DNA of 64,000 nt from an uncultured Candidatus Binatia bacterium (GCA_965242525.1 OZ251459.1:2464001-2528000), one strand, 5' to 3'; shown: positions 38,750-52,581, counted from the stretch's first letter. Notes: generated from the letters alone by a model not told the origin. Program-made: numbers and translations.

Positions 38750-38820
38750 GCCCGGGCGGTGGAGCGGGGACGGGCAGGCCGATGGTTCGAGTCCAAGGTG
38801 GCGGAGCGAACGCCCACGCC

Positions 38821-38974
38821 ATCATTCCCGCGGACGCCCGCCCCGTCCCGTCATTCCCGCGGACGCCCGCCCCGTCTCGTCATTCCCGCGAAAGCGGGAA
38901 TCCACTTTCATCGCTCTCGTTGTACAAACCTCTCCAGGTCCGATTACTCTTCTCGACCCACTCGACCTTCCATG
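38821..38974. repeat. Family B end (two degenerate units plus palindrome) and GIY-YIG remnant; left island boundary
   Basis: TCATTCCCGCGGACGCCC twice, GTCATTCCCGCGAAAGCGGGAATCC, then sequence matching the reverse complement of 52395-52470. Confidence 0.8.
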
Positions 38975-40498
38975 ATTCTTGAATACGGCCAGCAGGTCGG
39001 AGACGCCCACCGCAAGTCCTTCGGGCAGTTCTTCACGCATCCGAAGGTCGCCGAGTTCATGGTGCGCTGGGTTCTGGGTTCAGGCGGCAAAACGCTTTTC
39101 GATCCCGCCTTCGGGCTTGGGGCGTTTCGAGCAGCGCTGCCTTCCGGGGCAGGCGTCGGGTTCTCCGGATTCGAGCTCGATCCCGACATCATCCGGTTCT
39201 GGGAGAAAAGGACAGGCGAGAGCGCTCACTTCGTCGCCATGAGGGACTATCTGTTGTCCTGGGGTCAACGTCATGCCAACATCGTCTGCAACCCGCCCTA
39301 CATGCGCTTTCAGAAGTTCCTGAATCGCGAGGCGGTCTTCCCGGAGTTTCAGCGCCGCCTGGGGATCGGGCTTTCCGGCTACACGAACATCGCGTCAGCG
39401 TTTCTCCTGAAGTCGATGTCAGAACTCGGTAGTCGGGGAAGACTGGCCTACATCATGCCTTTGGAGTTCCTGAATACCGGCTACGGAGCGACGGTCAAGC
39501 GGCGGTTGGTGGAGTCGGGTCACCTGTTCGCGATGCTTCGTTTCGATTGCGAAAAGGAGGTTTTCCCGGACGCGACGACCTCGGTAGGCGTGGTCCTCTA
39601 CGATAAAGGGGCCTCCTGCTCGTCCGTCCGATTCTACACGCTGGGAAGTATCGCTGACCTGGATGCGTTCGACCGGATGGCGCCGGTTACCGAGGTTCCC
39701 TGCGAGGAACTGGACCCGGAAGCCAAATGGTCCTCGTTGTTCCAGCGCCGGGAGTTCGAAGTGGATCGCGCGCGGATGGCGCCGCTCGCGTCCTTTGGCC
39801 GGTTCGTCAGGGGTATTGCCACGGGCGCAAACGAATTCTTCGTCCTTCGTCCGTCGGTAGCCAGGGAAAGGGGCATCGCTCCGGGTTTCGAGTGCGTTCC
39901 CTGCATCACCAGGAGCGCCCAGGTTCGCAGACCTGTGTTCGACACCGCGGACTACGATGCCCTGTACGAGTCGGACGGGCCGGTTCTGCTGTTTTCCGCT
40001 GGCGGTTCCCTCTCCCGGGCGGCGGCGGAGTACGTCCATTTCGGCGAGCGGTCAGGATTCGACGGCCGCTTTCTGACGAGAAACCGAAAGCCCTGGTACA
40101 GGACGGAAAGCAGAAGCCCTTCGCCGCTTCTGCTGGGCGTTTTCTCAAGAGGGGGGTACAAGATCGTCCTGAACCGCAGCCACGCCCTGAACCTGACCTG
40201 TTTCCACGGTTTTCAACCCAACCTGTTCGGCCACCGGTACGTCGAACACCTGTTCCTGTATTTCTCCTCCGAGACCGGAAGGCGGATCGTTTCGCTCTTC
40301 ATGCGCAAGTACGGCGACTCTCTGGACAAGTTCGAACCCAACGACCTGAACCAGTCCCTGGTTCCCGCGCCGGACTTCTTCGCTGCGATCCCCGCAGCGC
40401 AAGTAACGGAGGCGGTGGCGGTTGCGCGGAAGACAGGGCAACTCCCGCAATGGGTCGAAGGCGTCTTTGCGCCGTTGGCGACACGCTCCGCCATTTGA
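38972..40498 (+). CDS. N6-adenine DNA methyltransferase, gamma class (M.AccI-like), orphan
   Basis: HRKSFGQFFT, FDPAFGLGAF, CNPPY, EFLNTGYG, VRGIATG, KFEPNDLN; motif string resembles M.AccI as recalled, not searched. Confidence 0.88.
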   Translation: MILEYGQQVGDAHRKSFGQFFTHPKVAEFMVRWVLGSGGKTLFDPAFGLGAFRAALPSGAGVGFSGFELDPDIIRFWEKRTGESAHFVAMRDYLLSWGQRHANIVCNPPYMRFQKFLNREAVFPEFQRRLGIGLSGYTNIASAFLLKSMSELGSRGRLAYIMPLEFLNTGYGATVKRRLVESGHLFAMLRFDCEKEVFPDATTSVGVVLYDKGASCSSVRFYTLGSIADLDAFDRMAPVTEVPCEELDPEAKWSSLFQRREFEVDRARMAPLASFGRFVRGIATGANEFFVLRPSVARERGIAPGFECVPCITRSAQVRRPVFDTADYDALYESDGPVLLFSAGGSLSRAAAEYVHFGERSGFDGRFLTRNRKPWYRTESRSPSPLLLGVFSRGGYKIVLNRSHALNLTCFHGFQPNLFGHRYVEHLFLYFSSETGRRIVSLFMRKYGDSLDKFEPNDLNQSLVPAPDFFAAIPAAQVTEAVAVARKTGQLPQWVEGVFAPLATRSAI

Positions 40499-40511
40499 GG
40501 GGAATCTCCCC

Positions 40512-40541
40512 TTGACACGCGCCGGGATTTGTGTGTAGATG
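40512..40541 (+). promoter_or_regulatory. Putative sigma70 promoter of the adhesin leader
   Basis: TTGACA at 40512; TG-rich run then TAGATG 18 bp downstream. Confidence 0.5.
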
Positions 40542-40644
40542 CTCCCGGCAAGCTCAGGTCGGTTGACCGTAACCCGACCGGAACCCATGGCAGGTTCGAA
40601 GATCACTCCCGCAGAAGACCGTAGGACTCTCCACGAGAGGCAAC

Positions 40645-40678
<34 letters not shown>

Positions 40679-41032
40679 ATTTCCCGGAAACCTCCTGACT
40701 GTTCGACCTGTAAGGGTTTTCTTACCCCTTTCCATCCCATCCATCTGCCGGGCCGCTCCTTCCCGGCCCTCGTCTTGCTCCGTTCCGAAACCGGACTCCA
40801 TCCGACCTCGGGTTCCGCGCCCCGGTCCCGGCGCCGAACCCGGGCCGGACCTCTGTATTCCTTTGTCAAGGACGCCTTTCGCGACAACATACGACGGAGG
40901 TGACGCCATGAACGAAATCAGGAGGCGTCGCCGTTCGTTGGAGCCGGAGAATCGTGGCTGGCAGTAACGGAAAGAGACTCGCTTCATGCAGAGGTCTCGA
41001 ACAAACACAGGTGTTCCGAAAAGGAGGAAACC

Positions 41033-42688
41033 ATGAATCCAAAGCACATGACGAATGATTCCGACCGCGTAGCCCCTGACCGCCGCATCCACCTCCCAAC
41101 TCCAACCCCCGTGCGGCCTCGCCGGCGCATTGCCGCGGGTGTCCTGTCCCTCCTGCTCGGCCTCTCCTGCTTCGCCGCCTCTCCGGCCTGGGCGGTCAAG
41201 CTCGGATCGGGCGCCAATGACACGTACACTGTCCCGGAATTCGCCGACGTCCGCGCCTACCTTGCAGCTTCAGTTGAGGATCGCGATGGCTATATCGACG
41301 TCAAGATCAAACATTCAAGCTCAGGCACAGAATACACCTACACCCTTAAGCGGAGGCACCTGGATGCGTTCCATAAGGACTACACCCTGACAGACGAAAA
41401 ACTGATCAAGCGGTATCGTAATGCTGCGGATTATAATGCCGACCCGACACGCGCTAACCGACTCTATGCCTACCTTGAGAACAAGGACAAGGTGTACCGT
41501 GTCAACGACCTCGAAATACGTAACAGGGACCCCTCCACCCTGAATGACCGCAACCTTCCAGACCCTGTAGAGGAGACCCCTGGAAATAATACGGCCATCG
41601 GCGTTGACGCCAGCGCAACAGAGTACAGAGCCATCGCCATCGGCCATAACGCCAGCGCAACGAACCGCGGCGCCATCGCCATCGGTCATCTATCCCAATC
41701 CTCCGGTTGGAAGTCCATTGCCATAGGCTCAGAAGCCAACGCCAGCGGTGGGATTGCAATGGGAAGGAACGCCCGATCCCGTGGGCACGGCATCGCCTTG
41801 GGCCGGTACGCTGACTCTGATGGCGGTGTGTCGTTGGGCAACAGGGCTACCACAGGGCAGTTCGCCACGGCATTGGGAGGCTATTCCAGGGCCACCGCCG
41901 CAGGCGGCGTCGCTGTGGGCGTAGGCGCTAGGGCTGAGGGCCTGAACAGTATCGCCCTGGGCCGGGGCGCGTCCGTTACCGGGACCAGGGGCATCGCCAT
42001 CGGTTCGGGAGTCTCGGCCGTACAGAACGAGGTGGTCATCGGCGGCGCCAAGGGACAACATACCTACAAGTTGCCGGGCTTGGTCAAGACCACCCACACT
42101 TCAGGGACCCGGGTGGTGACCGTGGACAGCCAGGGGCGGCTCTCCACGCAGGCCGCAACCTCTTCCCCTGCCTCCCCTTCCCGGGGCGCCTCCCTGCGGG
42201 GCGGCGCAGTGCTTTCCTCCGAGGTGACCCCCCTGAACCGGGACCTCGGGACCCGGACGGACGCTGCCGACTACGAGAAGGCCCCGGCCATCGGTTCGGG
42301 TCCCGAGGCGCCGGAAACCGCAGAACAGCGCCGGGTGGTGGTGCAGGACACCAACCGGGACGGGTCGGTGCGCCTGCGCACCCTGGACTTCGGTGACCTG
42401 ACGGGGGTAGACCGGCGGTTGGCGGGAGTGGAGCAGCGAGTGACCTCGCTCAGCGACCGGTTGAACAAGGCCACTGCCATGTCGGCGGCCTTGAGCGCGT
42501 TGCCCAACGTGGTGCCGGGGGACAACCGGTTCTTCCTCGGAGTGGGCGCGGGCCACTACAGCAGCGAGCAGGCCCTGGCCATCGGCATGAGCGCCCGGGT
42601 CGGGCGCCACGTGTTCGTGAACGCGGGCGCAGCCCTTGCCAGCGGCGACGACGCGAGCGTTCGCGGCGGCGTGGGCGTAGTCTGGTAG
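41033..42688 (+). CDS. Trimeric autotransporter adhesin (YadA-like)
   Basis: Long signal peptide (..SPAWA), head repeats (AIAIGHNASA, SIALGRGASV), coiled stalk, anchor AMSAALSALP...GVGAGHY...GGVGVVW; AAGGAGG RBS. Confidence 0.92.
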   Translation: MNPKHMTNDSDRVAPDRRIHLPTPTPVRPRRRIAAGVLSLLLGLSCFAASPAWAVKLGSGANDTYTVPEFADVRAYLAASVEDRDGYIDVKIKHSSSGTEYTYTLKRRHLDAFHKDYTLTDEKLIKRYRNAADYNADPTRANRLYAYLENKDKVYRVNDLEIRNRDPSTLNDRNLPDPVEETPGNNTAIGVDASATEYRAIAIGHNASATNRGAIAIGHLSQSSGWKSIAIGSEANASGGIAMGRNARSRGHGIALGRYADSDGGVSLGNRATTGQFATALGGYSRATAAGGVAVGVGARAEGLNSIALGRGASVTGTRGIAIGSGVSAVQNEVVIGGAKGQHTYKLPGLVKTTHTSGTRVVTVDSQGRLSTQAATSSPASPSRGASLRGGAVLSSEVTPLNRDLGTRTDAADYEKAPAIGSGPEAPETAEQRRVVVQDTNRDGSVRLRTLDFGDLTGVDRRLAGVEQRVTSLSDRLNKATAMSAALSALPNVVPGDNRFFLGVGAGHYSSEQALAIGMSARVGRHVFVNAGAALASGDDASVRGGVGVVW

Positions 42689-42853
42689 TCAGGATGAAGC
42701 GTTCCTATGACCTGTGCAGGGTCGTTCGGTCATATATCCGGTCCGCCAGAGTCAAGATCTTGTCCAGCATGGCCGGTTTCCGTCGCCAACCCCAGGAGGC
42801 GCCCGCGGAAACGGTCGGTGCTCATGCTGCGTTTCCCTTCCGGGATCGGGTGC

Positions 42854-43042
42854 TCAGGCCCGGCCGGCTGTTCGTTCGATGAGGACCCGGAGCGCTTCCA
42901 TCGCTTCCCTGTGCCTAGCGTCTTCGCGCTTCTCGCGCTGGTCTCCGGCCCGGCGCATCTGCCGGATGCCGAGCCATATGGAGCCTACGGCGAGGGCTCC
43001 GACTGCAAGTTGGCCGACAGCTATCCATTCCGTTGGCGTCAT
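42854..43042 (-). CDS. Small single-TM coiled-coil protein
   Basis: MTPTEWIAVGQLAVGALAVGSIWLGIRQM...; AAGGAG RBS; 62 aa. Confidence 0.6.
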   Translation of the reverse strand: MTPTEWIAVGQLAVGALAVGSIWLGIRQMRRAGDQREKREDARHREAMEALRVLIERTAGRA

Positions 43043-43329
43043 CGTGTTTCTCCTTTCCTTTCTCCGAGAGACAAGAATCCTCATGCTGCCGATGGTTGGA
43101 ATTGTCAAGTGTAACGCAACGCTTATCGCTCCGACGGTTTCAATTCCGTTCCTGTCCCTTCCCGGACTGTTCGGGGCCTGTACATATACAAGCAATTTAT
43201 ATGCCAACCTGGCGCACCTTGTCGTCGGGCGCCGGGTATGTCTGACTTCACGGGGTTGCTTGCCGCAGACGGGGGCGCGCCCGCGCCTTCCTTTCGATGG
43301 CTCAGGCTGGCGTCCCGTAGAGGCCGAGG

Positions 43330-43530
43330 CTATTGAGACGGGTCTGCTTGTTGAGGACGACGGATAGACGAAGGGGCTGTCAACCCTTCCAGTAAACCTT
43401 CCAGTCTTGCCATCCGCTCCCGGAGGTCGCCAATATCCCGTCGCATGGCGGCTTGACCGGGGAGAATCAACGCGGCGAGTCCCAAGCCGGTTCCGACGAT
43501 GGCGATCAAGGTGGCAATCAGTTCCGTCAT
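43330..43530 (-). CDS. Small single-TM coiled-coil protein
   Basis: MTELIATLIAIVGTGLGLAALIL...DIGDLRERMARLEGLLEG; 66 aa. Confidence 0.6.
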   Translation of the reverse strand: MTELIATLIAIVGTGLGLAALILPGQAAMRRDIGDLRERMARLEGLLEGLTAPSSIRRPQQADPSQ

Positions 43531-43646
43531 GTTGAGAGAATACACGGTGTGAGGGCTGGTGTCAAACAGGAACGGACTCCCTTACCCTGACCCTAAAACG
43601 CCTTCTTGATCCATCCTAAGCCGTTTTTGGCCGGCCAGTTCTCCAT

Positions 43647-45089
43647 CTACTGCAATGCCTCGATTAGCAACTCATTAGTGTCGAGATTCGGCTTTATGCT
43701 GCTTATCCTTTTTTTGACCTTAGACCCTATCGACAAGAACGCTTCCAAGTCAGCTTTGAGTTCAGCATCCGACATGGGTTCAACCGGATCCGTTCCGTCG
43801 TCCAAGGGCATGGGGGGCATTTTCAGTATTCCCTCCTTCCAAAGGAGATACATTAATCTATCTAATTTCTTTTTCTCTTCAGGAGTTACATCACGAACAA
43901 CAAGAGGGGTGCGGCTGCGTCTCCAGCGGCGCGGAAGCACGTGATCAACATTGGTCTCGATGGCCCACTCGTCCGCCCGCTTTTTCATCTGCTCTGGCTT
44001 GAGCCTCAGGATTTCGGCGGCGTGTTCGAGCGAGATGAGGTTTTTTTCGAACGCCTGCCGCACGAGATCCGATAGCCGACCCTCGACGAAGTGGTGCTCC
44101 GAGAGGCCGTCGGGTTCTCCCGAACGGCTCCAGTTCCACGCGAATTCGCTCTTCCTGATGGCTTCGGGTTCTTCGATCCTGCGAAGTGTCTTGCCGCGGT
44201 CGCTACGGTGCTGCCATTGGAATGTACGCCAGACCTCGGGCGTCTCACGCCCCGATTCTACCAACCGATGGAGCACGGTCTTGTAGCTAACATGGAAGAT
44301 CAGTTTGACCTTGAGGACGCGCTCCAGCAAGGAGAGTCCACCGGTCGCGTTCCACTCGTCCATGAATGCGGACTCCGGCATCAAGAACTCGCTTGCAAAG
44401 GCGTCGGCTTCCTGCTCCGGCTCCACTTCCATCTTGGTGGCGTCCCTTCGGTACTCGGAGGGGTGTAACAGCAGGTGGCCGAGTTCGTGTGCAGCAGTGA
44501 AGATCCAGCGTTCTACCGAGATCCGCTCCCAAGTATTGACCACCACCCCGGGGCCACCGTCGCCTTTCCCGACGCTTAGCCCGAAAAAGGAGTCTCGCCT
44601 GGTCTCCAGGAGCAGGAGCTTCACGCCGTTCTCTTCAAGCAACCTGCCGATGTTCCTTACCGGCTCCGCTGGCGTGAGGCCGGCCGCCCGGCGAGCGGCT
44701 TGCGCAACTTCCGAGGGGCTTCCGCCACTCGTCGAAGCATCTTCCAACCGGAAGGGAGTGTGGTCATCCAGTTTGGCTTCAAGCTCGGCGTAGGCTCCCA
44801 GCCACTTCGAGACTCTTGCCAGAATCCGTTCTCGGGCATTGACCTGGGTCTTGGCGCGGAACCGCACACCCTCCAGGGGTCGAACCGGTGTAACCAAGTC
44901 ACGAACCGGCACCGCCAACGCCTCTGCCAGATCATTGAGGGTTCGCGTCCGCGGGACGACCGCGCCCCGCTCGATCTTGCCGAGCGCCATCCGTGAGATA
45001 CAGGCCTTTACAGCAAGCTGATCCTGGGTCAGTTGCCGGTCCAGCCGGAGGCGGGCGACATTTGCAGCAATGCATCTCTCCGTTGTCAT
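43647..45089 (-). CDS. XRE-family HTH / ImmA-IrrE metallopeptidase fusion
   Basis: LTQDQLA...SRMALGKIERG HTH; VVVNT...ERWIFTAAHELGH (HExxH); EQEADAFASEFLMP. Confidence 0.9.
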   Translation of the reverse strand: MTTERCIAANVARLRLDRQLTQDQLAVKACISRMALGKIERGAVVPRTRTLNDLAEALAVPVRDLVTPVRPLEGVRFRAKTQVNARERILARVSKWLGAYAELEAKLDDHTPFRLEDASTSGGSPSEVAQAARRAAGLTPAEPVRNIGRLLEENGVKLLLLETRRDSFFGLSVGKGDGGPGVVVNTWERISVERWIFTAAHELGHLLLHPSEYRRDATKMEVEPEQEADAFASEFLMPESAFMDEWNATGGLSLLERVLKVKLIFHVSYKTVLHRLVESGRETPEVWRTFQWQHRSDRGKTLRRIEEPEAIRKSEFAWNWSRSGEPDGLSEHHFVEGRLSDLVRQAFEKNLISLEHAAEILRLKPEQMKKRADEWAIETNVDHVLPRRWRRSRTPLVVRDVTPEEKKKLDRLMYLLWKEGILKMPPMPLDDGTDPVEPMSDAELKADLEAFLSIGSKVKKRISSIKPNLDTNELLIEALQ

Positions 45090-45100
45090 GCAATTCTCTC

Positions 45101-45138
45101 TTGACAAAGCTACCATTTCTTGATAAGATCAAGAAATG
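45101..45138 (+). promoter_or_regulatory. sigma70 promoter with overlapping palindromic operator
   Basis: TTGACA(45101)-17-TAAGAT(45124); perfect IR CATTTCTTGAT-aag-ATCAAGAAATG at 45114-45138. Confidence 0.75.
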
Positions 45139-45233
45139 TAAGGTTTGCTAAGCTATGTCGGAAGCCCTCCGCTACCGGTCTGGGGGATGTCACACGAGGA
45201 CAGTGTACGGCTCGAAAGAGAGGAGGTCAACGG

Positions 45234-47254
45234 ATGAAGGCATTGAGCGCCCACGAAAGGCATCTGACTCTTGGGTATCTGGCAAACATCTCCCGGCGCG
45301 TACATGGGCCATCGGCCCATGGCATACGAGAATGGGTCGTCGAGCACCGAGACCTATTCGGGTTGTCGAGCGTCCCTGACGACTGGCCGCGGATGAGGAA
45401 GATCTTGGAGCACGCCCATGCCTCGACGGCTGGTGCCAGGATGGATCGGACCGCCAGGAGATTGCACCGTCTGGGTGTGGAGATGGACCTTTCACAGACG
45501 GATATTGCCATCTTGGACTTCCTGCTCCGTTACGAAACACAGCCAGTCCTTGAAGCCTTGGCAGACACGGTGGGAGGGGGTTCCCAGGGCACTGGAGCGC
45601 AGGCGCGAACAGCGCGCTCATCCCGGCCATCCTTGGCCTGCCGGCGTCAACGGTCAACCGGTGTCTTTCGCCAGAAGCGCCGCTCGTGAAGCAGGGCTTG
45701 GTGACTGTCGATCCCAAGGATGGGGATGCCAGTGTTTTGGGCCGGCTGAACCGACTTGTGTTTCTTCCTGGCCCCGCTGACGGCGACGTGAGGAGTATCC
45801 TGTTCGAGCCCGCACCTCCTGCCGAGCTGCGCTATGAGGACTTCGACCACATCGCGGACGATCGCGACCACGCGGCTAGGCTCCTCAAGGGGGCACTCGA
45901 AGCAGGCGAGGCCGGTATCCACCTACTGCTGTATGGACCGCCGGGCACTGGCAAGACCTCGCTGGCAGCCGCCTTGGCCGCACGCTTGCGGGTCCCTCTT
46001 TATGCCCTCGGCGAGACGGATGAGCACGGGCGGGAGCCGAATCGGGACGAACGCCTTGCGGAACTCCGTCTTGCTGGTCATCTGCTCGGACCTGGAAGGG
46101 ACGCGCTTCTCCTTGCTGATGAGGGGTTCGACGACTTGGCTCTGAACGGCTATGGCAGCAGCATGCCCTTCTTCGATGATGGCCTGTCCAAGCGACGGAC
46201 TGTTGGAAGCAAGGTGTTCGTGAACCGACTGATCGAGCGGGCGCCACTGCCGGTGATATGGTGTTCCAACGATGTGAGGAGTGCATCCCCGGCCGTCCTG
46301 GACCGTATCACCTTCTCCATTCGGCTCCAGAAACCCCCGGTTGAGGTGATGGCCGGGATGTGGCGCAAGCTGGGCCAGGAGAATCAAATCAACCTGGATC
46401 CTAGCCATGCTGTGTCGCTGGCCGGGGACTTCGATGTGTCCCCACGCGCTGCCGCCAGCTCCGTTACGGCCGCCCGACTCGGTGGCGGAGGCCTATCGAC
46501 CATCTGCAGGAACCTTGCCAGCGTCCAGCGCTTGGCAGGAGTCAAGCCGTCGCGAAGCGTGCCTGCTGGATGGTATGACCCGGCTCTGCTCGCGGCCGAC
46601 GAAGACGTCGTCCAACTCGCGGACCGGCTCGTCGAAACGGGTGAGCGGCAGTTCTCGCTGTTGCTGAGCGGGCCGCCTGGATCCGGGAAGAGCGGGTACG
46701 CCCGTTACCTCGCGGGCAGGCTCGGCATGAAGGTGATGGAACGAAGAGCCTCCGACCTCCTTGGGATGTACGTGGGACAGACCGAGCAAGCCATGGCGCT
46801 TATGTTCGAGGCCGCCTGCGACACCAAGTCGTTCTTGATCATCGACGAGATCGAGGGTCTGCTCTCGGATAGAGGCCGTGCCCGGTATTCCTGGGAGTTG
46901 ACTAGCGTGGATGAGATGTTGAGCTGGCTCGAGGGGCATCCCCAGCCGTTTGCTGCCACGACAAACTTGAGTTCATGGCTGGATCCCGCGACGCAGCGTC
47001 GCTTCACCTGGTGGGTAACGCTCGACTACCTGACCCGGGAACAGGTCGCTATGGCGTTCCACGGTTTCTTCGGCATGGAGGCGCCAGCCACGGTCCGGGA
47101 GTTGACGAACCTCACTCCTGGTGACTTCCAGGTGGTCAGCCGACGCGCCAAGGTGATGGGGGTCTTGGAGAACGCAAGCAGACTTGGGGAGATGTTGTCC
47201 AAGGAGTCCCAAGCTAAAGCTGACGCACCGAGGAAGATGGGCTTTGGGAGCTGA
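45234..47254 (+). pseudogene. Double-AAA+ ATPase split by a 1-nt frameshift near 45576 (pseudogene, phase variant or assembly error)
   Basis: AGGAGG RBS and ATG 45234; second frame open from 45554; GPPGTGKT/LLADE, GPPGSGKS/LIIDE, ATTN, RRF, C-terminal RKMGF. Confidence 0.75.
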
Positions 47255-47379
47255 AGCGCGTTCGTACTGGATTCGCGGTGTTTCGCGAAAGAGGCCTTTC
47301 AAGGGCCTCTCTCGCGTGCCTGAGACCAACCGATACGGTTTCATTCTACGCTTACCGGCTAGGTGCTCGACGGGGGAAG

Positions 47380-48201
47380 ATGATGAAGAAGATACTACTC
47401 AAGGACATTTGGCCAATCGACGAGGTTCAAGACCACAAAGTCCACTTCGCACGCTGGAACGGTGAGGACCAGCCCTTAGACGAATGGGTACGTGATCCGA
47501 CAGCATGGGTCGGCTGGCAGAGGTACCGTCCCCATCCAGATAAGGACGACTTCAACAGGGATTACATCTTCTCGCTTATGAGCTTTTACCACGAGACAGA
47601 CGTCTGGCTGTTTGGAGGGGTCTTCCGCGTGAAAGAGCGCCACAAGGATAGGTACGAGGTGGAGTTGACAGAAAGGGGCGGACAGTTCATCGGGAGACTC
47701 AAGCTCCGCTTTCACTATGTTGCAAGGAACCCAAGGCCGAATTTCGAGGGTAGCTACGACGAGTTTGAGGTGTCAGAAGTCCTCGCCGAGCCGTATTTCG
47801 GTCGAACGTTTCCCGGCTACGAAAGGGTGCATATCGATTTCCGAGAACTGGAGTCACTGGCGAAAATCGACCGGCCGGACTGGAAGGCGGCCCTTGCCAA
47901 CGTAAACGGCGTCTATCTCATCACCGACGAGAGCACAGGCAAGCGTTACGTTGGCTCCGCTTCCGGCGAGCAGGGTTTGTGGGGTAGATGGAAGACCTAC
48001 ATCGAGACGGGCCACGGTGGCAACCAGGGGATCAAGGAGGCGACCGGCGATAACAGCCAGGAATATGCGCGGCGCCACTTCGTGTTCACCTTGCTGGAGT
48101 TCTTTGCTTTCAGGACACCGGAAGAGGTCGTTAGAGGTCGCGAGACCTTCTGGAAACAGGTTTTGCTAACCCGCGGCAAATACGGCCTAAACGAAAATTA
48201 G
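47380..48201 (+). CDS. GIY-YIG nuclease family protein
   Basis: GVYLITDESTGKRYVGSASGEQGLWGRWKTY...RETFWKQVLLTR..GLNEN, with an N-terminal extra domain. Confidence 0.9.
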   Translation: MMKKILLKDIWPIDEVQDHKVHFARWNGEDQPLDEWVRDPTAWVGWQRYRPHPDKDDFNRDYIFSLMSFYHETDVWLFGGVFRVKERHKDRYEVELTERGGQFIGRLKLRFHYVARNPRPNFEGSYDEFEVSEVLAEPYFGRTFPGYERVHIDFRELESLAKIDRPDWKAALANVNGVYLITDESTGKRYVGSASGEQGLWGRWKTYIETGHGGNQGIKEATGDNSQEYARRHFVFTLLEFFAFRTPEEVVRGRETFWKQVLLTRGKYGLNEN

Positions 48202-48284
48202 CTGGCTCTTCATGATGGGGATCTTCCGGCTTTTGTGTAGGCAAGGCAGGAGGGAAAGGGGAGCGAAAAGGATCATGCGGTGAT

Positions 48285-48410
48285 GGATTCCCGCTTTCGC
48301 GGGAATGACGGGGGTGGGGCGCCTGCGGGAACGACCGGGCAGGCGTCTGCGGGAATGACGAGGATGGGGCGTCTGCGGAACGACGGGGCAGGCGCCTGCG
48401 GAGCGATGAC
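48285..48410. repeat. Family B end in reverse orientation (palindrome plus degenerate units); right island boundary
   Basis: GGATTCCCGCTTTCGCGGGAATGACG followed by four GGCG(C/T)CTGCGG..GAC units. Confidence 0.8.
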
Positions 48411-48544
48411 CGCGTGAATCTCCCCGCTGGACTTCCCCTTCCTTTCGCGCTAGGATACGGCCCTCTTTCCGGGAACGGGGCTCCGGGAGCGGTCAGGCAG
48501 GGCCGACCGACTCGACGTGCGGAGCCGCGGAAGGACGCGCGCTG

Positions 48545-48665
48545 CCGCTTGGATCCGGGTGTGCCGGACCGGGACGGACGAGACAGCCTGGATACTGAAG
48601 TCTCAGTATCGTCCCAGGCGGTGGCGGGATGGCCTTCCGGTTCGGTCCGGGAGGCTATTTTTGTT
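48545..48665 (+). promoter_or_regulatory. Structured panB leader (pan-motif-like) with terminator-like hairpin
   Basis: GCCTGG/CCAGGC stem enclosing GATACTGA-agtc-TCAGTATC; then GGCCTTCCGG..CCGGGAGGCT and a T tract before the RBS. Confidence 0.55.
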
Positions 48666-48680
48666 TGGAGGAGGTGGCCC

Positions 48681-50957: not shown

Positions 50958-51304
50958 GGGGGCGATATGGGTTCGACGGAGGTGGGAAGTCAAAGTGGCA
51001 TGCCGAGGTCCTGCCGCCTCGTTAAACAGGCGGGGCTGCAAGTAACTGCAGACGAACAAGATTACGCCCTGGCTGCATAAGCCAGCGTCTTGCCGACCTT
51101 CTCCCGCGGGGTCGGACAAGGCGTCGTTCAGCGGGATGGACCGATTTTCCTGCCGGAGGGGATGAGGTCGAGATTCGAACCGGCTGGTTGCTCAGGACCC
51201 CGTCGCCGGGGGCCTGTGGAACGAGACTCGAACGGCGACTAAGCATGTAGTCACTTCTGGCGGAAAGCCTTCGGACGGGGGTTCGATTCCCCCCGCCTCC
51301 ACCA
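50958..51304 (+). ncRNA. ssrA: tmRNA; tag reading frame ADEQDYALAA* at 51048-51080
   Basis: 5' GGGGGCG..GGTTCGAC; 3' GGGTTCGATTCCCCCCGCCTCCACCA; directly after smpB. Confidence 0.96.
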
Positions 51305-52252: not shown

Positions 52253-52581
52253 CGTCATTCCCGCGGACGCCCACACATCGTCATTCCGGCGGATACCCAC
52301 ACCCCGTCATTCCTGCGGACGCCCACACATCGTCATTCCCGCGAAGGCCCACACATCGTCATTCCCGCGAAAGCGGGAATCCAGAGGAATCGGGCATGGA
52401 AGAGTGAGCCGATTGAGAAGAGTAATCCGACCTGGGGAGGTTTGTACAACGAGAGCGATGAAAGTGGATTTCCGGAAAGTGGATTCCCGCTTTCGCGGGA
52501 ATGACGGGGTGCGGGCGTCTGCGGGAATGACGGGGGTAGGCATCTGCGGGAATGATAGGGCGGGCGTCCGCGGGGATGACG
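52253..52581. mobile_element. Complete MITE-like unit: (26-bp unit)x4, palindrome, GIY-YIG remnant, palindrome, (unit)x3
   Basis: Palindromes at 52357-52382 and 52481-52506 are reverse complements; interior translates NRAWKSEPIEKSNPTWGGLYNE. Confidence 0.8.

Follow-up and report, generated by a model that had tools for sequence, protein, structure and literature searches.

Three genes that lie side by side between positions 43647 and 48201 of a 64,000-nucleotide (nt) stretch of the genome of an uncultured Candidatus Binatia bacterium (GCA_965242525.1 OZ251459.1:2464001-2528000; the whole stretch is referred to here as the window) raise the question of whether they act together as one system and, if so, of what kind. 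One of them encodes a helix-turn-helix (HTH) domain fused to a metallopeptidase of the HExxH type, and is divergent from the other two, which encode a tandem AAA ATPase and a GIY-YIG nuclease. All of these elements are present where the original prediction, made from the sequence alone, had placed them; it took them to be an inducible defence module. The explanation that we find best is that the genes form a regulated mosaic cassette, built on a plan that recurs around the ATPase family, horizontally acquired and restricted to one lineage, in which the ATPase has now been knocked out. We give this reading a probability of about 0.45.

The three genes, their deletion and their shared control region

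The ATPase gene starts at an ATG at 45234 on the + strand, with GAGGAGG ahead of it, and lies in the window in two pieces. The 5' fragment (45234..45689, +), which encodes an N-terminal helical domain, loses its frame after about codon 114 and ends at a stop at codon 152. The 3' part (45686..47254, +), which begins at a GTG overlapping the stop of the 5' fragment and runs for 522 codons, encodes the two rings, D1 and D2. Pfam AAA matches fall in two stretches, with the translations GPPGTGKT...LLLADE and GPPGSGKS...LIIDE, and the second ring also contains MYVG and TTN...RRF. We take these motifs to be Walker A and B in both rings and, in D2, a pore loop (MYVG) and arginine fingers. D2 is a classical AAA domain, to which NVL, Rix7, AFG2, VAT and p97 align at E-values between 8e-23 and 1e-12, and it is also matched by the IetA models of PADLOC (E 8.7e-26, profile positions 111-267 of 374).

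Intact relatives of the ATPase are 679-727 amino acids (aa) long. In 16 loci fetched from the same genus, the N- and C-terminal parts form a single gene, and the N-terminal part is in frame in all 16 of these relatives. The closest relative (P0002, 83% identical) gives a model with a mean predicted local distance difference test (pLDDT) score of 79.4, in which a confident all-helical N-terminal domain (9-116) is followed by a linker (120-132, pLDDT <50), a small helix/strand domain and two alpha/beta rings. No Pfam family matches the first 210 residues of the ATPase; in the ESM Atlas, residues 1-210 lead to unnamed clusters, one of which has a winged-helix Pfam family on 11% of its members and is a lead only. 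A close-relative scan of genome contigs with the ATPase returned one spurious 57-residue match and nothing else.

The frameshift that the original prediction had seen in this gene is a true 10-bp deletion, and an assembly slip is excluded. Contigs rebuilt from public sequencing runs were aligned to 43600-48300. Run X1 (depth 222), which may be the source sample of the assembly, yields one 4,150-nt contig identical to 44120-48269, and 45574 is spanned unchanged by run X4 and by run X5, which comes from a different study and carries a different organism label. Run X6, a sponge metagenome from a third study, gives small contigs over all three genes, mostly at 95-100% identity and a few at 90-95%, and one of these has ten extra letters behind 45574. 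With the ten letters restored, the frame is open from 45234 to 47254 (676 codons), and its product aligns gap-free with P0002 over 675 residues at 81% identity; with the letters absent, the first stop is the one at codon 152. Because the letters found in X6 reopen the 676-codon frame, it is the window that carries the deletion, at 45574..45575 (+), in the disordered linker that joins the N-terminal domain to the small helix/strand domain. A homopolymer error was considered as the cause of the frameshift and is ruled out by the ten-base difference, reproduced in independent contig sets. Our own reading of the flanking sequence suggests that one short tandem-repeat unit has been lost. It is a matter of speculation that the GTG overlapping the premature stop could permit re-initiation, giving a 522-residue protein devoid of the N-terminal domain.

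The nuclease gene, uzuA (47380..48201, +), is intact. Its product of 273 aa has a conserved N-terminal domain and a C-terminal GIY-YIG nuclease domain, and its residues 6-273 align with positions 4-278 of the 278 in the PADLOC UzuA profile PDLC03973 (E 9.6e-53), which places it in the defence system Uzume. The Pfam GIY-YIG match is weak (E 0.0017, under the curated cut-off), and PHROG 26160, a family of phage proteins without known function, also matches. Residues Y179, Y190, R203, E255 and N271, presumably the GIY-YIG catalytic residues, are invariant across 29 aligned sequences. The family as a whole (1,499 matches) is well conserved, with the same length and domain layout throughout. The original description of Uzume is said to be that of Millman et al. 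in 2022. Its mechanism is listed as unknown in a review (PMC12926258).

The third gene (43647..45089, -) encodes a regulator of 480 aa that joins an XRE-type HTH to an M78 (ImmA/IrrE-type) peptidase and resembles RmrA. An alternative start at 45116 would give 489 aa; the second ATG, at 45089, is the likelier of the two because DNA similarity with a paralogue in the same genome begins at 45080. In the open reading frame (ORF) 43647-45116 (-), Pfam HTH_3 covers residues 21-74 (E 8.9e-10) and Peptidase_M78 residues 199-285 (E 6.3e-15), and the translation contains the motif HELGH, which is of the HExxH type. Fourteen RmrA models of PADLOC match the protein, at E-values from 4.6e-37 for the best to 5e-16, while the match to the capP model (E 2.9e-16) is confined to the peptidase part; residues 10-371 match PHROG 2439, annotated as a transcriptional regulator.

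The closest relatives of the regulator form a family of 377-379 aa, to which the paralogue in the same genome belongs, with 69-76% identity across the first 78% of the protein. DNA similarity with that paralogue stops at 43961. What follows is a 3' extension of the gene (43647..43960, -) of about 105 codons and low GC content (0.50), which is absent from the 377-aa relatives and stands where they have a PIN gene; among relatives, this tail is common only to P0242, and in the predicted model its pLDDT is below 50. A fused PIN remnant was considered for the tail and is ruled out, since tblastn finds none at E-values up to 10. A second XRE-M78 gene of the same genome (locus L122, G000:C1:74169-75299; 76% identity) is followed by an overlapping PIN gene and adjoins a 1,885-aa Eco57I/MmeI-type protein and a DUF4143 ATPase; because of these two neighbours, it marks another defence island.

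In the AlphaFold model of the regulator (mean pLDDT 67.6), the HTH and the peptidase are accompanied only by short helices at 338-384; there is no strand beyond residue 187 and no evident GAF domain. A Foldseek search with this model gave no match at E <= 0.001 and weak domain-level rows only, to restriction-controller proteins and DdrO for the HTH, and to CapP (7t5t) and IrrE (3dti), over about 183-185 columns each, for the peptidase. In CapP and IrrE, the GAF domain and the peptidase form a groove for single-stranded DNA (ssDNA), as far as the available text of the source goes (10.64898/2026.05.16.725639). As no GAF domain follows the peptidase here, an ssDNA trigger is not to be assumed for this regulator. 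The DNA-damage trigger put forward in the original prediction thus loses its footing: it is an analogy borrowed from CapP and IrrE and no finding of this analysis, the GAF domain is missing from the model, and the closest relatives are regulators of PIN toxin pairs. Among the ORFs listed for the cassette, of which the small ones were not scanned singly, no further HTH gene stands out that might encode a separate XRE repressor as the substrate of the peptidase.

Between the regulator and the ATPase gene lies a candidate operator (45114..45138), a perfect 11-bp inverted repeat with a 3-bp spacer, CATTTCTTGAT-AAG-ATCAAGAAATG. At its centre sits the -10 of a sigma-70-like promoter (45101..45129, +), TTGACA-17-TAAGAT with TG before the -10, which matches 10 of the 12 consensus positions and is directed to the ATPase gene. 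Both the near-consensus promoter and the repeat covering its -10 had been predicted, and both are there. At up to 3 mismatches the repeat is the sole such site in the 4.23-Mb genome, and in 100 shuffles of the window it was matched zero times. Chance could account for the promoter match taken by itself, since three promoter-like sites were found against 1.3 +/- 1.1 in shuffles. A repeat scan extends the symmetry, imperfectly, to 45100..45152, with 25-nt arms of 80% complementarity. Because of these arms, a TTAGCA on the - strand mirrors the TTGACA on the + strand; the - strand hexamers were read by eye and were not reported by the promoter scan. The arrangement suggests two face-to-face divergent promoters, with both putative -10 regions inside a shared candidate operator. 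The upstream regions of three related regulator genes contain no copy of the palindrome. Upstream of the gene at L122, an ATCAAGA-like half-site was seen by eye only and is given no weight.

An exchangeable block in a defence hotspot

The three genes came, or went, together. Relative to a sister species (G023), they form a single indel block (43540..48417): similarity with G023 breaks off after 43539 and is found again from 48417 on, and between these points G023 holds an Mrr_cat restriction-type gene where the window has the three-gene cassette. As G023 swaps the whole of this block, the three genes constitute one exchangeable cassette in a defence hotspot. The hotspot is bounded by core genes, to its left ftsZ and the glutamate-cysteine ligase gene (gcs2), and to its right panB, panC, smpB and the tmRNA gene. 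Of 27 other genomes in the genus, 24 have an interval of 268-498 nt from gcs2 to panB; this interval is 9.9 kb here (38750-48680) and 7.8 kb in G023 (L144), while G006 has 6.5 kb of unrelated DNA at this point (L145). The GC content of the island is 0.50-0.66, compared with 0.68-0.74 in the flanks. The island of G023 also contains a methylase-HNH fusion and an AAA-PDDEXK_9 gene.

The remainder of the island holds genes of other kinds. An Eco57I-like type II N6 methyltransferase gene (38759-40498, +; PADLOC MTase_II, E 4e-89), with no restriction gene evident alongside, is common to the window and G023 at 92% DNA identity. A gene for a YadA-type trimeric autotransporter adhesin with head repeats and a membrane anchor (41033-42688, +) is absent from the island of G023. 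At 43330-43545 (-), a 71-aa ORF lies just behind a promoter-like site, and its product is predicted to have one membrane helix and a tail resembling a coiled coil; the genome contains 12 matches to its family, some of them in tandem arrays near G000:C1:2816000. Because this ORF is also present in G023, it lies outside the cassette. Short GC-rich repeats flank the island (48213-48400, about 38800-38960 and 52300-52500), with translations like ...IPAKAGI...; in all four runs, the ends of many contigs fall at 48217-48222, which a dispersed repeat would be expected to cause. The tmRNA gene (50958-51304, +; tag ADEQDYALAA) follows smpB directly, 2.8 kb to the right of the island and not abutting it. 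At the right island edge of G023 (L144, 7906-7955), 50 nt are 86% identical, in reverse, to the HTH-coding stretch 44930-44978 of the regulator gene, and may be the remnant of an earlier cassette.

The company kept by the ATPase family

The plan on which the cassette appears to be built is seen in other members of the tandem AAA family. This family (3,160 matches among 7,996 candidates scored) has members of 680-730 aa on plasmids and islands of several phyla; the ATPase of the window shares 46-50% identity with those of its own genus and 28-41% with those on plasmids. PADLOC 2.0 matches the family only via generic AAA models such as IetA. The neighbours were read in 35 other loci: 16 from the same genus, seven from a sample of the phylum and 12 from plasmids, the last being 12 of 13 records covering at least 80% of the query and read as annotated, the thirteenth being unannotated under the match.

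A regulator of the WYL-WCX type stands beside the ATPase in 7 of the 16 loci of the genus (six by Pfam, one by cluster membership), in 3 of the 7 phylum loci, where it is always divergent, and in 9 of the 12 plasmid loci, making 19 of 35 in all. Among the proteins of the window that were scanned with Pfam, none gave a WYL match. Annotations of PD-(D/E)XK or RecB-like nucleases lie within 4 kb of the ATPase gene in 7 of the 12 plasmid loci, or in 9 of 12 if DUF2779, which we take to be a nuclease-like domain, is included. These neighbour counts stand without a baseline from random loci.

The gene directly downstream of the ATPase varies from locus to locus. It encodes PD-(D/E)XK (H21) or Sir2 (H23) proteins, overlapping the stop in both cases, DUF2779 (H22, H28), WYL (H17, H18), an ADP-ribosylglycohydrolase (L012, L013; fused in L012 to an inositol-phosphatase domain), a NUDIX protein (L017) or the PADLOC candidate PDC-S11 (L019). 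The others belong to small private families: comparing the downstream genes all against all and with UzuA gave only such families, none of them UzuA-like, and the T5orf172 protein that neighbours the ATPase in L026 showed no similarity to UzuA when their profiles were compared. HEPN and macro genes are also found among the neighbours of the family (L132-L143, L012-L027, L125-L131).

A full-text literature search found no description of a module of WYL regulator and tandem AAA ATPase. The exchange of regulators has a precedent: the available text of one source describes interchangeable ssDNA-sensing regulators upstream of immune operons, namely the WYL proteins CapW/BrxR, CapK with CapS, and CapP with CapH (10.64898/2026.05.16.725639).

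On the mosaic-cassette reading, the locus would follow this recurrent plan of a stress-type regulator, a Cdc48-like tandem AAA+ unfoldase and then a variable effector gene. The regulator slot, elsewhere taken by a WYL protein, would be filled here by a Rosmer-type XRE-M78 fusion, and the effector slot by UzuA, in place of the PD-(D/E)XK or DUF2779 nuclease, Sir2 or ADP-ribose hydrolase of other loci. A dimer of the XRE domain, bound to 45114-45138, would block both its own promoter and the promoter of the putative ATPase-uzuA operon. A trigger would activate the M78 peptidase, which, acting in cis or in trans, would sever the HTH from the remainder of the chain, and this cleavage would derepress the operon. 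UzuA would cut nucleic acid, and the ATPase would, to judge by the MYVG pore loop in its classical AAA D2 ring, unfold or remodel a protein partner, conceivably by contact with UzuA itself. A complex prediction for the full ATPase (alignment A2) with UzuA (alignment A1) scored 0.00 and weighs neither way. In this genome, at most a regulated Uzume would still be active.

A wider proposal can be made tentatively, although we think it rather unlikely. In this proposal, the family would represent an undescribed, widespread class of mobile conflict modules, in which a Cdc48-like tandem AAA+ unfoldase gates or activates an interchangeable killing enzyme (PD-(D/E)XK, DUF2779, Sir2 or ADP-ribose hydrolase, and here Uzume), both under the control of interchangeable sensors of damage or infection, usually WYL proteins and here a self-cleaving XRE-M78 repressor; the window would then hold a regulator- and effector-swapped member. 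If this were so, a 'single-gene' system such as Uzume could be taken over by a larger machine as its effector. The window alone is a modest find, since it is a decaying, lineage-restricted mosaic of recognisable parts. Its wider value is that it draws attention to a sizeable family of two-ring AAA+ proteins with WYL regulators and with nuclease, Sir2 or ADP-ribose enzyme genes as neighbours, and that both accessory slots would appear to be swappable, with a peptidase-repressor in place of the usual regulator and Uzume in place of the usual effector. The broken allele here and the intact one in the sponge-metagenome strain also form a natural pair, in which the contribution of the unfoldase to UzuA could be compared.

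One system or three neighbours

The strongest competitor, and a real possibility, is that the three genes are neighbours that share no function: an autonomous uzuA that became attached 3' of another unit, as also happens in type I restriction operons; an orphaned antitoxin of the Rosmer/PIN type whose toxin is gone and which now represses nothing but its own promoter by way of the palindrome; and the decaying relic of an ATPase gene. The occurrence of the parts bears directly on this. Strong matches to the ATPase (E < 1e-130) are found in 14 of 61 related genomes, all of the same genus; in a sample of 401 genomes of the phylum the ATPase family occurs in 7, the window's own included, and UzuA in 6. 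The original prediction looked for the three genes to co-occur elsewhere, an expectation that has largely failed, since the trio is found only in near relatives.

These relatives are represented by a sponge-metagenome strain. Contigs of X6 bridge the joint between regulator and ATPase genes (44993-45296) as well as that between the ATPase gene and uzuA (47068-47367). The closest ATPase relative, P0002, and a UzuA that is 69% identical (P0124) each come from a single contig of exactly 4,376 nt, and from these equal sizes we infer that the two probably share one contig. This preservation of gene order, probably on that contig too, speaks for the cassette, as does the fact that the trio is one indel block against G023. 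Two further observations are awkward for a chance assembly: the palindrome-covered promoter, with its 10 of 12 matches, faces the ATPase gene, and the ATPase family is regularly accompanied by a divergent regulator and an effector-like downstream gene.

Other observations weigh on the opposite side, among them the loci of the separate families. By tblastn, neither UzuA nor an XRE-M78 protein lies within about 7 kb of the ATPase in any of the 16 loci of the genus, nor beside it in the 7 further loci of the phylum, and GIY-YIG or M78 annotations are absent from the 12 plasmid loci, so that the count is 0 of 35 (16 + 7 + 12). Seen from the nuclease, neither the ATPase nor the regulator accompanies UzuA in the three phylum loci whose flanks could be used, a fourth locus being a contig of 2.4 kb. 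Nor is the ATPase beside UzuA in any of 80 metagenome loci, whose UzuA relatives are 50-62% identical and whose upstream sequence is at least 1 kb long in 56 cases and at least 2.2 kb in 39; a distant XRE-M78 gene lies about 5 kb away in one of the 80. Close relatives of UzuA on contigs of 8,727, 22,358 and 161,105 nt have no counterpart of the same size in the ATPase table, which is a weak negative.

UzuA keeps varied company instead. In the metagenome loci (L042-L121) it lies directly downstream of HsdS in 8 of 80 and near HsdR in 5 of 80, that is, in type I restriction operons, and in 13 of 80 it is followed, at the stop codon, by one conserved gene (260-368 aa) without a Pfam match. In a preprint, Uzume is one of three listed single-gene systems that contain a GIY-YIG domain (10.1101/2024.10.26.620412). 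As UzuA also rides in type I restriction operons or with a conserved partner gene, Uzume may not always be a one-gene system. The absence of the ATPase from all 80 loci fits the autonomy of Uzume and does not show autonomy for the copy in the window.

The remaining points against a common function lie within the locus itself. Since uzuA is intact and the ATPase gene is broken, UzuA evidently persists without the ATPase. The two genes are separated by a GC-rich hairpin (47284..47316, +), after which there is no U-tract and which the terminator scan did not report; the whole 136-nt stretch has a z-score of -1.58. In the closest regulator family (70-76% identical), an overlapping PIN gene directly follows the 377-379-aa regulator gene in 2 of the 3 loci fetched, and the regulator of the window could be an antitoxin that has been orphaned and controls only its own expression. 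The palindrome overlaps the 5' end of the regulator gene, and a GTCAAG motif, seen by eye, precedes the start codon in all four regulator genes compared, including paralogues. TTGACA was read as the reverse complement of this shared leader motif, and part of the promoter match may for that reason be a by-product.

Set against these points, the reading as a regulated cassette draws on the repressor-type divergent layout, the position in a defence hotspot, the exchange as one block and the syntax of the ATPase family, and to this extent the inducible module originally predicted is upheld. As a description of the present genome it does not fully hold, since here the ATPase is inactivated while uzuA is intact.

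It is improbable that the locus is a Rosmer-like toxin-antitoxin system, in which the XRE-M78 protein would neutralise, by contact or cleavage, the ATPase, UzuA or the product of the 71-aa ORF (43330-43545). The RmrA model matches, the promoter-like site ahead of that ORF and the habits of Rosmer are consistent with this: RmrA is the ImmA-type antitoxin of that system, whose partners are many unrelated toxins in either gene order, membrane-depolarising RmrT toxins among them, according to the available text of PMC10440598. However, the ATPase gene and uzuA are divergent from the regulator and outside its operon, that operon contains no toxin gene of the RmrT, PIN or RelE types, the neighbours have no toxin-family match, and the 71-aa ORF downstream belongs to the multi-copy family described above, which is also present in G023, where the cassette is lacking.

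The least probable alternative, and a very doubtful one, is a DNA-damage or stress unit of the cell or of a mobile element with no anti-phage role, a DriD-like regulon of an unfoldase and a repair or suicide nuclease, which would suit the resemblance of the family's WYL partners to ssDNA-sensing DriD and CapW (PMC13004042; PMC9186387; PMC11662680, each as far as its accessible text goes) and the Y-family polymerase and SbcCD genes near some family members, but sits poorly with the patchy occurrence of the ATPase and UzuA in the phylum sample, the hotspot location beside methylase and restriction genes and the match of UzuA to a defence-system model.

Relation to known systems

The original prediction did not recognise the combination as a named system; two of its three parts do have names in PADLOC, UzuA (Uzume) and the RmrA-like regulator. 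Compared with Uzume as described, the gene in the window is alike in its full-length profile match and in its N-terminal domain and C-terminal GIY-YIG domain. In that description Uzume is a single gene, whereas here uzuA follows a tandem AAA gene behind a putative repressor-controlled promoter, an arrangement that was not found in the 80 other loci.

The regulator agrees with the Rosmer or COG2856-Xre proteins in its N-terminal XRE HTH and M78 HExxH peptidase, in its matches to RmrA models and in having closest relatives that precede PIN toxins, an association of COG2856-Xre fusions that has long been noted, according to the accessible parts of PMC2701414 and PMC10440598. It differs from them in its lack of an operon toxin, in its extra tail of 105 residues and in being divergent from an ATPase-nuclease pair. 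In this last respect it is closer to the pairs CapH and CapP, ImmR and ImmA, and DdrO and IrrE, with which it shares an M78 peptidase and an XRE repressor upstream of, and divergent from, an immune-type operon. Those pairs consist of two chains, while here there is a single chain and no GAF domain after the peptidase.

For the ATPase, IetAS offers a likeness in the IetA models that match its classical AAA D2 ring. IetA has a single ring and works with the protease IetS, whereas the protein in the window has two rings and the only protease gene in the cassette is that of the regulator. Proteins of the Cdc48/p97/NVL type share both the two rings and the classical AAA D2; unlike in these, the N-terminal helical domain and the small helix/strand domain match no Pfam family, and the reading frame in the window is not intact.

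The operons that combine the same ATPase family with a WYL regulator of the CapW/BrxR/DriD type have the same order of regulator, ATPase and effector-like gene. In those operons the effector is a PD-(D/E)XK, DUF2779, Sir2 or ADP-ribosylglycohydrolase protein, whereas the cassette described here has no WYL gene and carries a GIY-YIG nuclease in the effector position.

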